NCBI GenBank assembly: GCA_951406725.2
Contig: OX597826.1
Location: 12,028,001-12,092,000, forward strand
Length of the DNA stretch: 64,000 bases
From: Octopus vulgaris
Taxonomy: Eukaryota
Direction: 5' to 3'
Of the stretch, positions 3,635 to 62,268 are shown piece by piece; within the stretch, counting starts at the first letter, position 1; each line of letters begins with the position of its first letter. The notes beneath the pieces are model-generated. The model had not been told where the DNA came from. It did no database searches and worked only from the letters and a program-made list of their open reading frames with translations. The position numbers and the translations under genes are program-made.

Positions 3635-3774
3635 ATTGCAGCTTGAAATAAAAGAATACTGTAATGACGATTACTACGGTTCAACATGCGATGTCCATTG
3701 TATAGAACGAGATGATGACGATGGCGGCCATTATACATGTGATAAACATTCAGGAAAGAAAATCTGTAATCCAG
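3635..3774 (+). CDS. Exon A of Delta/DSL-EGF Notch-ligand-like gene (most of the DSL domain); upstream exons not identified in window
   Basis: ttag|A...CCAG|gtaagc. Translates LQLEIKEYCNDDYYGSTCDVHCIERDDDDGGHYTCDKHSGKKICNP(G), matching the DSL pattern C..YYG..C...C..RDD..GHYTC...G.K.C..GW.G..C. Phase-1 donor. Confidence 0.92.
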
Positions 3775-3800
3775 GTAAGCGAGAGAGAAAAAGAAGGGTA

Positions 3801-42414: not shown

Positions 42415-42537
42415 GATGGTCAGGTGAATCATGTCAAAACAATATTGACGACTGCGTGGGAAACGGTTGCAAGTTCGGTTCAACATGTGAAGATAAACTC
42501 GGATTTTATACCTGTACCTGCCCAGCAGGTATAACAG
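42415..42537 (+). CDS. Exon B of DSL-EGF gene (end of DSL + EGF1)
   Basis: tttcag|GA...ACAG|gtatg, 123 nt, phase 1-1. (G)WSGESCQNNIDDCVGNGCKFGSTCEDKLGFYTCTCPAGIT(G). Supplies the GWxGxxC that completes exon A's DSL domain across a 38.6-kb intron. Confidence 0.92.
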
Positions 42538-51401: not shown

Positions 51402-51571
51402 GTCGCTACTGTGAAGCAGAAATTAACGAATGTGCATGGTTCCCTTGTCTCAACGGAGGTAGATGTCAGGATGGTCGCGCGTCCTTTTTATGTATCTGTC
51501 CTGCAAAATATACAGGGTCTCGGTGTGAACGAGAAATCAATGCTTGTGACAGTTCTCCTTGTTTAAATCAG
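51402..51571 (+). CDS. Exon C of DSL-EGF gene (EGF2, start of EGF3)
   Basis: ttttcag|GT...CAG|gttggt, phase 1-0. RYCEAEINECAWFPCLNGGRCQDGRASFLCICPAKYTGSRCEREINACDSSPCLNQ. Confidence 0.93.
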
Positions 51572-52314: not shown

Positions 52315-53069
52315 TAATACATTGTTATTAATATCAGGAAATCAATATTAGAGAATTCTTCAGAAAGATATATACTTATGTAAAATAATTGTTGTATTAA
52401 ATATATAAATATATATAAATATATGTAAAAATGTATAAGTATAAATATATAATATATATGACAGTACAATATGATGGATTTTATGCATAATTATTATGGA
52501 TATATGTATGTATGTATATATATGCATGTATATATATATATATATATGTATATATCTATGTAAATATATCGCGATCGCGAGTGGACTCAGTCCGCTGCTT
52601 TTCGCCTAGGCACCGTCGTCGTCGGCCGCTCGTTCCGCGGGCGGTCGTCTGCCGCCTCGTCGGCGTTCGATTTCCTGGTCGCCGGCATCGGACGCACTTC
52701 CCCTCCGTTCCGTCGTCGCGACCTGTTTCCCGTCGAGCCGGTAGGCGCGCGGCGTCAGCAAGTCGCAGACGAGCGCCCCGCCACTGCCGCCGGCTTCGCG
52801 GCCGGTCGGCGGTACGGGATCCACGCGCTCTTCTCGACCGGGCCCGTCGCCCCACGAAAAGCGCAGGCATGGCTAACCGACGGAGACGGGCAAACGCACC
52901 TCGCCCTCAGCAAGAAAAAGACTTGTTTTAGTTCTATTCCTGAGCGCCATACTAATACATTATTTGTTTGTACTCCACCTGCCTTCGTCTTTTGTTTATT
53001 TTCGTAAACCTTCCGTTATATATATGTATATACGTATAGGTATATATATGTATATATACATACATATAT

Positions 53070-53140: not shown

Positions 53141-56100
53141 TAATATTTTAAGTATAGGAAAGAATGGAGCTGAGCGAAGATTTAACAAAATTCCTTTATT
53201 TTATTTTCGACATAAACTTAGATAAACTTAGATATGTTTCGACCAAAGATTGGTCCAGGCCATGTCTAACTTAATAGCACCACCTGATAGGATTATTCGA
53301 ATCCTGTTTAAGTCAAGTTTTGTTCAAGTAGTGAGTTCTTGTTGGGTGAGTTGTAAGTTTTGTTCAAGTAGTGAGTTCTTGTTGGGTGAGTTGTATCCAA
53401 TTATGGGTGGCTTATCTGGTATTCTTTGAAGGAATCTATCCAGACTCTGTTTAAAGTTGATGGGATCCTTTTCCTCTTTGATCTCCCTCGGGACAATGTT
53501 AAATAGGGCAGGGCCTGTTGAGGAAAAGAAATTATGTTGCAGTGTACATGTATGTTGTGATTCTTGAATTGGGCAGGGGACGTATGGCCCGTGGTCCAAG
53601 TCTTGGATGAACCTTGAAGCTAATGTTTAGGTCGTTTGGGCAAAGTTGGCGGTATATTTTCCACATCGTACAAATGATGTACCGCTCACGGCGACGCTGG
53701 AGGGAGTAAAGTTTCAAGGCTTTAAGGCGATCCCAATAATCGAGAGCAGCCATGCCTTCAATTCGTTTAGTGAGTGCCCTCTGGGGTGACTCAATTCTGG
53801 AGATGTTTTGTCTTGTGTGGGAGACCACAGTGGGCAGCAGTATTCAAGGTGTGGCCGTACAAAGGAGGAAAAAAGTGGTATGATGACACCTTGTTCTCTG
53901 GACCGGAAAGTTCTTAAGATCCAGGAACTCATCCTACGAGCTATATCGACCTTCTTGTTGATGTGTGCACTCCAACTGAGATCGTCATCAACAATTACAC
54001 CCAGGTCTCTGATATTGTTAGAGGCTGTGAGCGGTTCCCCTGAAGGAAGAGAGTATGGTTGTTTTAGTGAGGAATTTCTTCCAAAATGCATCAGCTCAAA
54101 TTTTCCCTCATTCAGTTGCATTTTGTTTCTGTCTGCCCATTGACTCACAGCATATAGATCAGACTGGAGTTGAGTTCGGTCTGCTTCTTCATTGACGATT
54201 TGCTGGAGCTTAGTGTCATCAGCAAATATTTTCACTTTGCAGTAATGTACGACACTGGAAAGGTCGTTTATGTAAATTATGAAGAGTAGCGGACCCAAAA
54301 CAGTCCCCTGGGGAACACCGCTGGTGACTTTTGCTGGGTTTGAGTGGACTCCATCAACTACAACATGTTGTGTTCTATTCGCCAGGAAATACTTAATCCA
54401 GTGTAGAACTTTTCCACGGATTCCAACATTTGCCAATTTTGAGAGTAGGATATTATGGTCTACCCTGTCGAACGCTTTACTGAAGTCAAGATATATGACG
54501 TCAGAGTTCGAACCTGTTCCCAAGGCTTTGAGTACATCTTCAATGTGGTGTAAGAGCTGTGTTAGACAGTCCTGCCACAGCGAAAGCCATGCTGATTTGC
54601 ATTTAGGAGTTTGTGGGTCTCCAGGAAGTCAGCTATCCTTGATCTTAACACTCTTTCAAACACTTTAATGATGTGGGAGGTGAGTGAGATTGGGCGATAG
54701 TTGACTGCGAGGGATCTGTTTCCCTGTTTGAAAACCGGGATGACCGACTGGGATAGAAACTGTTTCGGTATATAACCTGCGTCTAACGAATTTCTCCAGA
54801 GGTTGGTCAGAGGGACTGCAAGTTGGTGTCTACATTCCTTCAGGAGACTAGCGGGAAATCTATCAGGGCCTACAGCAGAGTAATGTTTGACCTCATTTAT
54901 TGCTGCTACGATGTCAGTGGCAGTGAAGGTTATGTCTGAGATTTTGTGTTGGGAGTCAACTCCGTTCGTTTCTCTTACGTCAATAAAGTGGGAACACTAA
55001 AGACAGAGCAGTATTGTTTCTGCAGTATTTCTGCCATTTCTTTAGCATCGTGTTGGGGAATGCCGTTATCATCAATCAATGGCCCAATGGGTGAGACAGT
55101 GGTTCTATGCTTATTTGCATAAGAATAGAACACTTTTGGGTTCTGTTTGATGTTTTTGATTACCCATTGTTCCTCCACAGCTCTTTGATTTTCAATGGAG
55201 GTTTTCATGTTGGTCTGCAGATGAAGTTTTTCCAGCTCTAGTCTTTTCATTGTTGTTGAATGTGGATGTTGTGTGTGGGAATATTTTAATTGGTTGATTT
55301 TTTTGTTGAGTCTTTTGATGCGCCTGATGAGTGTTTTTTTCTTTTTAGGGAGCCGGTTTCTGTTTGTGTTAGTAGATTTCGTGGGAGTGTGTTTAGAGCA
55401 TGTATAGGTGACAATGTTTTCAAAGTGCTGCCACGCGGTCTCAATATGAGAGGAATTGAGAGTAAAAGACCAGTCGATGGAAGACAGATCCTTTCTGATT
55501 GTTCCCCAGTCCGCTTTGTGGAAGTTTATGTTGTCAAATGGGTGCCATGGAGTGGGATTGGCTGGTTTGGTTTTTATATGTCGGGAATTAAGATTGCAGA
55601 GTACCATGTCGTGGTCTGAGAGGAGAGTTTTTTCGACTGAAATACTGTGAACGTAGCTAGAGTGATTGGTCAATACCAGATCCAAGATCGTTTTATTCTG
55701 TCTCGTTGGTTCGAGCACTAGCTGAGTCAGGAAATACTCATCCATTAGATTAAAGAGCAGTTCTGCTGCTGCTCTATCTGATGTAGAGCACTTGCCTAAC
55801 TTCAGAGTATTTGTGGGCCAGTTCACATGAGGGAGGTTAAAATCATCACCCATCACTAGTATGTTTCCGGAGTGGTACTTCCGAAGGAAGGACTTGACTT
55901 TGCTAAGGCACTCTTCAAAGTACTTTAGAGGTGCCTGGGGAGGCCTGTAAAGACCAACAATGGTTATGTCCTTGGCTTTGTTGTATAGTGATACCGATTC
56001 ACAGTAGCCATTGGAAAATATGTCCTTGGCATCAAGTGAAAAGGAGTCATGGATAAAGATGGCTGTCCCTCCCTTATTTCGGTCTGTGCGATCCGCACGA

Positions 56101-56913
56101 ACAATGGTGAAATCTTTTATTTTCACCTCTGCGTCCATATGGGTGTTGTTCAGGTGAGTCTCGGTAAGGATAAAGAAAGGGAAGCAATGTGCCATTTCGG
56201 CAAGCCAACTCTCTATATATGGGATCTTCCATTTTTGGGCAATAATTGATGGGTTGATGCCACGTACATTTAACAGGAATGTCGAGGTAAGGGAAGTTGG
56301 TAATGGGTGAGTGGTCCTTGTGATTTGCATAGATGGTTGGTGATAGCTCGCTGGATCTCCTGGCTTAGGTCGGCCTTCATATTTTCTAGGTATGTCAGTA
56401 AAAAAGAGTTACTTGTTTGGTTTGCCACTTGGTCAGAGGATACATATTTCATGTTGGCGTTATTTGGTGTTTTTTCATACGTTGTTTGATTGTAGGAGGG
56501 GAAACGTGGTTGTATTTTGTTCTTGTTGTTGTCCTAGATTTCCTCTGTTCTTGTTTATATTTATTCTGTGATCGTTTTGTGCCCTTCAGATGGTGGTGAT
56601 TGCATTCTGGGTTCAGGCACATCCTTTGTGAGACAGAAGTTTGGCACAGTTTAGGATGGAATAAGGTGCATCCATTGCCTTTTATGCATCCGTATTTCGG
56701 ATCAGAACCATGGATTCTGTGTATGTTTCGAAGTCTGCAAAATTCCTAATTCCGAATGAATAAGGAGTCCATATGCAGCTTTCTCTTCATATGGACTCCT
56801 TATTCATTCGGAATTAGGAATTTTGCAGACTTCGAAACATATGTCGAAAATAAAATAAAGGAATTTTGTTAAATCTTCGCTCAGCTCCATTCTTTCCTAT
56901 ACTTAAAATATTA
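53141..56913. repeat. 126-bp perfect inverted repeat with 12-nt loop; left arm split by the LINE
   Basis: 53141-53214 joined to 56724-56775 is the exact reverse complement of 56788-56913. Confidence 0.9.
53215..56721 (-). mobile_element. 5'-truncated, frameshifted LINE (CR1/Jockey-like group): ORF1 Cys/His fragment, APE endonuclease, RT
   Basis: APE motifs NVRG, LTETHL, YRPP, GDDFN, LDLVLTN, SDHD (56330-54975). RT motifs YLDFSKAFDRVDH, SGVPQGTVLGPLLF, FADDTK, VRPHLEYC (54523-53714). 3' tail (TCTAAGTTTA)2; 2-bp TA duplication at the junctions. Confidence 0.93.
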
Positions 56914-59089: not shown

Positions 59090-59267
59090 GCTACATGCAG
59101 TGTAGGAAATGACTCTTCTTTGTTTATCTGCGAATGTATAGAAGGCTACACTGGTAGATTTTGTGAAACTTCTATAGACAACTGCCAACAAAACAACTGC
59201 CTTAACGGTGCAACCTGCATTGACCTACAAAGCGGTTATGACTGTCAATGTGCTCCTGGTTTTACTG
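59090..59267 (+). CDS. Exon D of DSL-EGF gene (rest of EGF3, EGF4)
   Basis: ctaaccag|GCT...ACTG|gtaagt, phase 0-1. ATCSVGNDSSLFICECIEGYTGRFCETSIDNCQQNNCLNGATCIDLQSGYDCQCAPGFT(G). Confidence 0.93.
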
Positions 59268-59939
59268 GTAAGTAAAACTCTTCCATGAATGGCTTAATTA
59301 ATTAATTAGTTTATTATTAATATTATTACCAGAAGTCAGACTATTGTTATCAGAATGTAATAATAATATATATAGAAGTTAGCTTTACATAAAACGCATT
59401 CATATATTCTCATGTAATCCACAATTGTACATTCTTAAACTGAATCATATAATCTGAAACGCATCTCTTCAAAAGATTCTATGGTAATGATATATATATA
59501 TATATATATTGTTTTACCTTCTAGTAAACTATATAGTTAATATCGGATCTTATACATATGGAACCTAATAAACTCGAAGTTTAGTATACTTTCAAAAGAC
59601 GAGCAAAGATTTACATAACCCAGATATTTCAAATTTGTATGCTTAGTACAGTCTTGAAGATAGTCAAAACAAAAAAAAAAACATATCAAAAGCAAAACAA
59701 TAAGAAATACTAGCTCTGATGCATAGAGTTTAAATATGGATGTCATATCAGTTAAAGATCAATTGCTAAATACATGATTTCTTTGAAATTGCATTCTCTT
59801 CATTCTCTTCAAAGCTTATGTTTTAGAATAAGTTATGGTGACTACAGACGTTATAGCAAACTAATTTAATAAAGTAAAATGCAATAGATTCAAAATTTGT
59901 GTCATAGTTTCGAATTTTGACCTCAGACCAGAAACCTCG

Positions 59940-60120
59940 GAGGAGGAGTCAGTCGATTACATCGACCCCAGTACTCAACAGGTGCATATCTTATCGATCC
60001 TGAAAGTATGAAAGACAAAGTCGACTTTGGCGGAATTTAGAATCAGGATATAAAGACAGATGAAATACTGCTAAGCAATTTGTCCGGCGTTCTAACGGTT
60101 CTGCCAGCTCGCCGACTTCT
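59940..60120 (-). mobile_element. SINE family B, diverged
   Basis: Reverse-complement core and head. Confidence 0.8.
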
Positions 60121-60223: not shown

Positions 60224-62268
60224 GTTCGAGATGTGAAGTCGATGTTAATGAATGTAGCAGCGACCCGTGTTTACATGGTGGCATTTGTTACGACAGAGTG
60301 AATAGCTTTAGATGTGATTGCCCGAAGGAAACCAGTGGAGAAATGTGTGAAGATAATTATCTCTTATCATCAACTAGCGTTACTACTGAACGTGTCAGTA
60401 GTCATCAATATACAGTCAAATCTAATTCCTCTGACGTAATATCTACAGAAAAGCAATCTGTAGATATATTTATCCCAACAAGTACAAATACCAGCATTTT
60501 AAAAATATACACTACAGAAAGCACCCAGTTAAACGTAACGCAAGAATTAAATCAAAGTGGGACAATTGAATATGGATTAACCACCAATTCTTCTGATTTT
60601 TTTCTTGATAAAAGTAACGCCACCTTAACTACAGTATCGTCAGAATCTCATACGGTTAAATATAACTCGAAGGATATCACTTCAGCGACAGAAGACTTGC
60701 TTTTGGCAACTATCAATGCTTCAAATCCACAAACTGTTGAACCGTTTTATGTGCCTGTCACCGTAGTCACAGAGAAACCCATAGTGGTTACTGATTGTTT
60801 GGTTATCAAAACATTCCGATCCAATAAACTAAACCAGATACTCTCACAAAATCAAAAATACACTGTTTGTTGGTGGGTATATGATTCCATCTTGCCACCC
60901 ATGTCTAACCCTGGTACAAGATATACTGAAAACCAGAACGAAGCGTATGTTTGGTTTGAAGACACTATGAACGATTTATTGCCTTTTACTTCAAAATCGA
61001 CTGCAGTAAATATAAACAGAAACGAAATATTGTCATATTTAAAGAATAGTTTACAAATAATTGATAACAGCTCTGAAGATAAACTTCCACACAATTTAGT
61101 TGATACACCATGTATTCAAATTTGGATGAAAGCAAAACGGAGAGGTTACGGGTATTTGAACACAAAACGGGGAGATCCAAATGTTGAATATAAAAGCAAA
61201 TTGAATGTTAAACGAAGATTCCTATCATCTAAGATGCTTTACTGCAAACAAAACTATAACTTGGCTGTTACAACAGATACAAAAGGCTTGCAGAATGAAA
61301 CGAAACAAGCATCAATATTGTCACAGTCAACGTCTATGGAGAACGAAACTACGAACGTATCGACATTACCACAGTCAACATTATTGACGAACAAAACCAG
61401 ATACATAACAACATTACCTCAATCGACGTTATTGACGAATCGCTCCACACGCTTGCCAGCATTATTAGAACCAACTTCATTGAAAACGAAAACCATGCGT
61501 ATATTAACAATATCGCAACCGGCGTTACAGATAAACGAAACAATTATTATGCCAACAATATCAGAAAGAATTTCGCTGAATAACAAGAGCTCACAAGTAT
61601 CGAAACTGCTACAAACAACGTCAGGGATTAACAAAACAATACACATGACAAGACATGCTGTTTCCACCTCACCAAAAGAAACGACCACTGTCGGAGTAAG
61701 ACGGTTTCACTTACTTCTGAGGAAACTTAACAGAACTCATTACCAGGAGCGCTTTTCATCAATCATAAACAGAGATGGCAACAAACCAAAAATGGTGTTG
61801 ACCGTTCTTCGGACAGCCAAGAGAATCTACCAGGTTGGATCTGACTCAGCTCGTAAAGTTTACAGAAAAACAAAACTTCTTCTGCATATGACATTAAAGC
61901 AACTCTCTACAATTTGGATTTCCGTAAAAACTTTTGCAGTTCAACCGATCTCTAAAACTCAGGAAACTATTAGACAGACATGGTTAAAGGTTAATAAAGC
62001 ATTCACTAAAACTCGCCAATTATTACAAGATGCTTATATGTTGGCACGGAATAACTTCAAAAATATTTATCAACGAATGAAGGAAAACACTTCAAATCTG
62101 TCAAGAGACAGCTATCAGAAATATTACAATTATTACAACAGCTATAGCAGAAAAATTAACAAAGTATCGGGATATTTTTCGAATATGTATAAAAATTATA
62201 CAAATAATTTGCAGAAATATTGGGAGAAATTTAATAAATATGGCAACGTTAATAACAAACGCCGTTGA
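60224..62268 (+). CDS. Terminal exon E of DSL-EGF gene: EGF5 + long Ser/Thr-rich, repeat-containing, basic C-terminal region
   Basis: ttctag|GT TCG AGA TGT..., phase 1. [42 protein letters not shown], continuing as the 656-aa ORF to TGA at 62266-62268. Confidence 0.88.

Follow-up and report, generated by a model that had tools for sequence, protein, structure and literature searches.

Notch signalling is normally confined to touching cells, because the ligands span the membrane and must pull on the receptor. The canonical Delta ligands, as represented by DLL1 (PDB 4xbm), share the order signal peptide, MNNL/C2 domain, DSL domain and EGF array, and canonical ligands are reported to bind phospholipid via the C2 domain (PMC8490980). 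According to PMC12953149, soluble dimers and tetramers of DLL4 failed to activate Notch, whereas plated or cell-tethered forms did so, and the tethered agonists required endocytosis of the ligand. DSL proteins without a membrane anchor have also been described: C. elegans has a secreted DSL ligand, DSL-1, which has a single EGF (PMC3415683), and the mollusc Delta-like gene Delta2, which is also present in octopus, is described as losing its TM domain by early termination and as being shorter than Delta1 (PMC8166818). A separate group of proteins, the apolipoproteins, synucleins and perilipins, is described as containing 3-11 helices; in the same source, basic-faced helices bind anionic liposomes, and perilipin 4 is without bulky residues (PMC6164224).

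Here we describe a gene of Octopus vulgaris that encodes a Delta-like head and, at the position where canonical ligands have a TM segment, a long, basic and amphipathic C-terminal domain. This domain is conserved from octopus to snails.

Gene structure and splicing

The window analysed here is a stretch of 64,000 nt of O. vulgaris contig OX597826.1 (positions 12,028,001 to 12,092,000), and the coordinates below refer to the window and to its plus strand unless stated otherwise. The region of interest is the 3' end of a 680-codon exon (60224–62268). The signal peptide and most of the MNNL domain are encoded upstream of the window. The end of the MNNL/C2 domain and the DSL domain are encoded by an exon at 3636–3774 (5' edge approximate), which is followed by a GT donor at 3775, is identical by tblastn to O. 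sinensis P0006 in 47 of 47 residues (171–217) and matches the DSL domains of DLL1 and Jagged. Further exons located by tblastn encode EGF1 (42415–42537, 100% identical to P0006 217–258), EGF2 and the first half of EGF3 (51402–51571), both with AG/GT flanks, and the remainder of EGF3 together with the EGF4/5 region (59090–59267). The last coding exon (60224–62268) is an open frame of 680 codons plus a stop (TGA at 62266–62268) and encodes the last EGF repeat, two mucin-like stalks separated by a central domain, and the tail.

The sequencing runs used to examine splicing are not recorded as RNA, which is only a guess; the evidence is the splicing observed in their contigs and not the label. In contigs of three of the four runs (X1, X3 and X8), the last exon is joined in frame to the EGF exons (joint 59267/60224), the intervening GT..AG intron of 956 nt being absent, and because the intron has been removed, these contigs represent spliced RNA. 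One X8 contig crosses the joint and runs through the stop codon to 62300, and an X3 contig reaches 62170; in run X6, where the coverage has gaps, the joint was not seen. As the last exon is both spliced and conserved, read-through or a chance open reading frame can be ruled out. No joint leading from the last exon to a further exon is listed in the run contigs, but since contigs drop rare forms, a minor isoform with a TM segment may exist.

Over its last 222 residues, the protein is 100% identical to CAI9731592.1 (P0002), a public O. vulgaris model that is named 'notch homolog 2' and contains no signal peptide, MNNL or DSL domain. The DSL exon, located 38.6 kb upstream of EGF1, is present in the window and missing from this model, which is therefore truncated and misnamed. 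In O. bimaculoides, the EGF1 exon is skipped in isoform X2 (P0003 versus P0007).

Several other elements lie in the introns. The intron after the EGF2-3 exon contains a broken LINE-type retroelement on the minus strand (approximately 53324–56745), in which endonuclease and reverse transcriptase frames were recognized by Pfam. A short high-copy repeat, probably a SINE, is located in the last intron (approximately 59920–60115) and is covered at very high depth by the contigs of each of the four runs. A GC-rich island of approximately 400 nt (approximately 52560–53000) is embedded in AT-rich intron DNA and has no Rfam match at the gathering score; the Rfam search of the window as a whole also gave no matches.

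Domain architecture and absence of a membrane anchor

In the full-length relatives from O. sinensis (P0006), O. bimaculoides (P0007) and Argonauta (P0005), the order is signal peptide, MNNL/C2, DSL, six EGF repeats, mucin, 4-Cys domain, mucin and tail. PF01414 detects the DSL domain of P0006, to which the window exon is identical, at 42.6 bits (cut-off 24.2), and PF07657 detects the MNNL/C2 domain of Argonauta P0005 at 62.5 bits; it is unreported for P0003 and P0006, but the latter aligns to DLL1 from residue 26. PF00008 scored five stretches of the EGF array in P0006, in which six repeats are seen by inspection. The best PDB match of the C2-DSL-EGF head is DLL1 (4xbm; E 4.7e-69).

After the last EGF repeat (60226–60351, supported by Pfam and alignment) follows mucin-like stalk 1 (60352–60771), with 34% S+T, seven N-glycosylation sequons and 21% identity to Argonauta. 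The conserved central domain (60772–61254) contains four cysteines, is predicted from a model to be alpha/beta, is 61% identical to Argonauta and belongs to no known family, with no Pfam family above cut-off. It can be aligned in both cephalopod paralogue groups, where it accompanies the tail, and is not evident in the snail proteins. Mucin-like stalk 2 (61255–61680; 32% S+T, eight sequons, 23% identity to Argonauta) contains 2.5 copies of a 48-nt repeat (61322–61439) and is much shorter in other family members.

The earlier note had proposed that the C-terminal tail takes the place of a TM anchor, and the missing anchor was borne out: beyond residue 40, no 19-residue stretch of any of the 11 family proteins examined has a mean Kyte-Doolittle value above 1.50, and the highest value inside the tail is 0.79, compared with 2.16 for the signal peptide. 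The C-terminal end is hydrophilic, making a GPI signal unlikely, and a hidden TM segment or GPI signal was thus discarded. The protein is probably secreted, and an N-x-T sequon ahead of helix A, invariant in nine of nine rows, would fit an extracellular location.

Compared with canonical Delta/DLL ligands, the octopus protein has neither a TM segment nor a cytoplasmic tail, but carries about 640 additional residues (mucin, 4-Cys domain and tail). It resembles C. elegans DSL-1 in being unanchored and differs from it in its multiple EGF repeats. To our knowledge, no comparable stalk-and-tail module exists in the secreted DSL proteins of C. elegans. The likeness to molluscan Delta2 is also limited to the absence of a TM domain, as the octopus protein is extended and not shortened. 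Identity with Delta2 is ruled out by its long conserved extension, its length (1054 aa) and its different accessions: XP_014785782.1 and XP_029644226.1 are not among the octopus ligands in the table of PMC8166818, as far as its columns can be assigned from the layout. The set of 138 DSL genes in that paper may nevertheless include the octopus gene. In the available part of a review of invertebrate Notch (PMC10970066), the protein is not shown. Six identifiers of the gene and its paralogue gave no mention in a full-text literature search, which covered main texts and few subscription journals, and the gene identifiers were not among the entries listed in an ink proteome supplement.

The Notch-binding face

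The Notch face of Jagged1 is described as consisting of F199, R201, R203, D205 and F207 (PMC3415683). The DSL domain of the window keeps two of these five residues, R203 and D205, and among the seven family rows, F199 and R201 are each conserved in none (the former being Tyr in three), R203 in four and D205 in five. No DOS-type EGF pair was detected, the models for EGF1-2 scoring 15.1 bits (PF21795) and 10.1 bits (PF21700) against cut-offs of 27, although the DOS motif is reportedly absent from DLL4 too. On its domain content, the octopus protein is a member of the DSL family that fails two defining features of Delta ligands, namely the TM segment and the Notch face.

The step from tethering to Notch activation suggested in the earlier note is thus weak. 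We regard activation of Notch by this protein as doubtful, because only two of the five face residues are kept and fewer in relatives. The head is more likely to be a weak modulator, a decoy or a binder of another partner, given that most of the Notch face of its DSL domain is altered.

Layout and periodicity of the tail

The last 155 codons or so, from 61800 onwards, had been described as a tail of 11-mer amphipathic basic helices. An amphipathic basic tail is indeed present there, but the conserved domain begins approximately 40 residues earlier, at 61681. Its head (61681–61800) consists of predicted beta strands and includes the invariant N-x-T sequon (alignment A6). Helix A (61801–61941; 47 aa, 10 K/R and 1 D/E) has L, L, W and V residues that are invariant from octopus to snails. 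An invariant proline hinge (61945–61947; 7/7 and 9/9 rows of two alignments) separates it from helix B (61951–62226), which comprises 92 aa with no proline, 17 F/W/Y, 17 K/R and 5 D/E, presents a hendecad a-d-e-h face and is Tyr/Asn-rich in its distal half, with 10 of its distal 40 residues being Tyr. In the window, helix B also carries three N-glycosylation sequons. The 155-aa tail contains 32 K/R and 6 D/E (net charge +26).

Helix formation by the tail is suggested by modelling. Long helices with a break near the invariant proline were obtained in two AlphaFold models, the second being of a compact family member and not of the window's own protein, but only at low confidence (mean pLDDT 49.6 and 50.3), and the prediction of helix B is likewise of low confidence.

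The hydrophobicity spectrum of the 155-aa tail peaks at 3.64 residues. When the periodicity was compared with shuffled controls, as the earlier note had proposed, none of 2000 shuffles reached the power of the tail at 3.667 and one of 2000 did so at 3.6, compared with 919 of 2000 at the heptad period of 3.5 and 1187 of 2000 at a period of 11. A heptad coiled coil is ruled out by the lack of enrichment at 3.5. Three orthologues show the hydrophobic peak at 3.64–3.66, and the helix B peak lies at 3.635–3.665 in nine of nine rows, all of which have more power at 3.667 than at 3.6. For helix B alone, however, the half-height width of the peak still includes 3.6 in eight of the nine rows, a width at which an ordinary 3.6 helix stays possible. 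Helix A peaks at 3.59–3.645, and the tail domains of two snails peak at 3.665 and 3.670, both with more power at 3.667 than at 3.6.

The 11-residue register was only partly sustained. The seven 11-mers quoted in the earlier note are in frame in the open reading frame (starts at 61801, 61834, 61975, 62008, 62041, 62074 and 62107), and the hydrophobic period fits such a register, but the two blocks given in that note are separated by 58 residues and do not share one register. Six of the seven units do have Y or F at position 10, as had been remarked; since the units were chosen by the reader, this count is no test. The quoted units are real, but the stretch that was passed over lies in helix A, the best-conserved part of the tail. 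As sequence repeats, the 11-mers did not hold up: identity at lag 11 is 13/144 (9%), and a search of the tail for a 33-nt DNA repeat found none, which rules out a true 11-mer tandem repeat. In the BLOSUM autocorrelation, lag 11 (z 3.1) does not exceed lags 7, 18, 22 and 29 (z 3.5–4.3), lag 33 is not enriched in the window tail, and recurring proline punctuation is absent.

What is regular is the distribution of residue types. In a mod-11 composition table of eight rows, from which the window row was left out, positions a, d, e and h are hydrophobic, each being 29–50% F/W/Y with no D/E, and the positions flanking them contain 19–40% K/R and 1–7% D/E. Acidic residues are found mainly on the far side (14–17% at four positions). 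The a-d-e-h spacing is kept without a gap through nine 11-residue blocks in eight of nine rows. Indels in the octopod tail measure three and four residues, or about one turn, so that the face is kept and the unit is not. At the start of helix B, near 61978, four residues that are present in all other cephalopod-type rows are missing from the window and from O. sinensis, and no insertion was found at this site in any sequencing run examined.

Conservation and family

The tail is spliced and conserved as coding sequence in other octopods, a point raised in the earlier note, and its conservation extends far beyond them. Identity between Octopus and Argonauta is 67% (104/155) in the tail and 83% (39/47) in helix A, compared with 68% in MNNL, 64% in DSL, 59% in EGF, 61% in the central domain and 21–23% in the mucins; by these alignments, the tail is about as conserved as the DSL and MNNL domains. 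The X8 sequence differs from the window at 33 sites in the last exon, only one of which lies within the final 195 codons (binomial P about 2e-4). Because synonymous changes are also absent from these codons and six of the 33 differences are common to X1, this scarcity hints at constraint but does not amount to a dN/dS test.

A profile of the central domain and tail matched nine proteins among 1.84 billion: the octopod orthologues, the DSL/EGF proteins P0009 and P0010, a Sepia pharaonis protein, a second paralogue and a mucin-2-like protein of Littorina saxatilis (E 1.3e-4). The second paralogue, found in O. bimaculoides and Argonauta under the name mucin-5AC-like, consists of DSL, one EGF, long mucin, central domain and tail. 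In P0012, P0013 and P0011, which represent this paralogue, the mucin exceeds 1000 residues and the DSL domain keeps no Notch-face residue exactly. The two Argonauta genes are probably in tandem, as their accessions are consecutive and their contigs are of equal length. A second profile round, scoring only the best 8000 candidates of 476–2000 residues, added Batillaria and four further records.

Because the Littorina row was included in the second-round profile, the profile was rebuilt without snail rows as a control. Batillaria and Littorina then scored 72.7 and 65.4 bits, whereas reversed sequences did not exceed 5 bits, ordinary shuffles 13 bits and shuffles preserving the mod-11 phase 24 bits (1000 of each kind of shuffle). 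The snail scores being far above the phase-keeping shuffles, the homology exceeds shared amphipathy. A tree of the tail, which came with a long-branch warning, grouped the orthologues of the octopods (95/99), Sepia together with the second paralogue (93/100), and the snail pair (100/100). The snail EGF-mucin proteins (P0014, P0030 and P0031–P0034) show very strong conservation of the tail domain, and in the Littorina protein (P0014) and P0031 this domain is followed by a long G/N/Y/R-rich low-complexity sequence. No DSL domain was found in the snail models, which seem to lack their N-termini.

Searches with the tail against known families gave no assignment. No Pfam family scored above cut-off, the sub-threshold rows being Phasin (E 0.004), Apo-CII (E 0.029) and ApoO (E 0.49) amid many unrelated helical matches. 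The best matches of the tail profile among PDB sequences were designed bundles (E 0.017), with no apolipoprotein, perilipin or synuclein chain at E up to 10. Foldseek with both low-confidence models returned no match at E 0.001 or better, and MHC-I platform rows for the larger model were set aside as weak (E 0.5 or more). The best VIA-align score (Z 10.5) was to generic hairpins and falls short of what is stated to be meaningful for models made of helices; the comparison barely touched the central domain. The ESM Atlas gave no usable match for the tail and, for the central domain, a best value of 0.83, which is at chance level. By these searches, the tail, of about 185 aa, forms a domain that matches no entry above cut-off in Pfam or the PDB and is shared by snails and two groups of cephalopod paralogues.

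Possible functions of the tail

The reading that we tentatively favour, at somewhat less than even chance, is that the tail is a cationic, surface-seeking helical domain with putative lipid-binding activity that replaces the membrane anchor. The two long cationic helices would lie flat on negatively charged lipid surfaces, with the F/W/Y face inserted into the anionic lipid and the flanking K/R reaching the head groups; the protein would then be anchored externally, the helices taking over from a membrane span, and the C2-DSL-EGF head displayed on glycosylated stalks. This reading is favoured by the period near 3.65 and the non-enriched heptad period, by the position of the tail at the end of the mucin stalk, by its conservation relative to the mucins and by the one-turn indels that preserve the face. 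The charge layout also matches that of the basic-faced helices that bind anionic liposomes (PMC6164224).

The resemblance to exchangeable apolipoproteins, perilipins and synucleins suggested in the earlier note extends to composition, which fits binding to a lipid surface, and to an extended amphipathic helix with a period near 3.67 whose apolar face is bordered by basic residues. The sequence repeats of 11, 22 or 33 residues and the recurring prolines of these families are missing, the tail is strongly net basic with an aromatic face, and no homology to them was found above cut-off in Pfam or at E up to 10 among PDB sequences; it is therefore at best a candidate for working like them, not a member. 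The absence of these features weakens the case for an external lipid anchor, as do the fairly narrow face, with only 4 of 11 positions strongly hydrophobic, and the three sequons of helix B, which might impede its close apposition to a surface of any kind. A further reservation is that the cores of hendecad coiled coils, of which tetrabrachion is an example, show the same a-d-e-h pattern. Invariant L, W, P and Y columns suggest a defined packing, and two-helix hairpins match helix A and part of helix B in the second, low-confidence model.

These last points bear on the next explanation, that the tail forms an 11/3 (hendecad) coiled coil or a bundle of helices by which several chains are joined into a bouquet of C2-DSL-EGF heads on mucin stalks, like the C-terminal oligomerization domains of other secreted proteins. 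The gapless a-d-e-h spacing, the proline-free helix B of about 100 residues and the core columns invariant across paralogues all agree with it. Homomeric coiled coils usually have inter-helix salt bridges, and here the near absence of acids beside the core leaves almost no salt-bridge partners, which is the main point against such an assembly: with a core that is 29–50% aromatic and basic flanks, like chains would be expected to repel each other. One-turn indels are also tolerated. A tetramer prediction for tail residues 40–185 scored 0.00, but as the alignment was unused and the fold of the chain itself is uncertain, this is evidence neither way. Overall, we consider oligomerization unlikely, although it deserves serious attention.

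A lipid surface is also not the only conceivable ligand, since heparan sulphate and other polyanions are equally plausible partners of a basic tail, which further weakens the case for a membrane-anchor substitute. The protein might accordingly be a component of matrix, mucus or cuticle, with a basic, Tyr-rich tail that binds polyanions or chitin or cross-links via tyrosine, and with a Delta-like head co-opted to a role outside Notch signalling. Its net charge, the tyrosines of distal helix B, the predominance of mucin in the paralogues and the degenerate Notch face are in line with this, as is the sequence that follows the snail domain, because G/N/Y/R-rich low-complexity sequence recalls adhesive and shell-matrix proteins. 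Polyanion binding, however, would need less than a strict helical periodicity maintained through about 145 residues, and MNNL, DSL and EGF remain well conserved (59–68% to Argonauta), so that we judge such a matrix or polyanion-binding role to be distinctly improbable.

As a special case of the external lipid anchor, the tail might attach a functional Notch ligand to membranes, vesicles or lipoprotein particles, the tether giving the force for activation; the complete signal-C2-DSL-EGF head with its DLL1 match, the activity of plated or tethered but not soluble multimeric DLL4 (PMC12953149) and the precedent of a secreted DSL ligand in C. elegans (PMC3415683) speak for it, but the mostly altered Notch face, the sub-threshold DOS-type models and the absence of a cytoplasmic tail for the endocytosis that tethered agonists needed (PMC12953149) make it very unlikely.

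Significance

The tail domain common to octopus, cuttlefish and snails is, to judge from the searches above, a new and previously undescribed domain of molluscs. Whatever the link to Notch, it and the 4-Cys domain match nothing above cut-off in Pfam or PDB, and the tail is directly testable as a small recombinant fragment. The boldest possibility, which we hold to be quite improbable, is that cephalopods own a natural self-anchoring Notch ligand, in which an apolipoprotein-like tail would put a Delta head on vesicles, lipoprotein particles or neighbouring cell surfaces and so switch Notch on or off at a distance. Protein engineers are currently trying to build alternative means of tethering and delivering Notch ligands. 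If the favoured reading of the tail is true, a ligand-like protein with a surface-seeking helix in place of a TM segment would represent another route by which such a ligand may be tethered or delivered.
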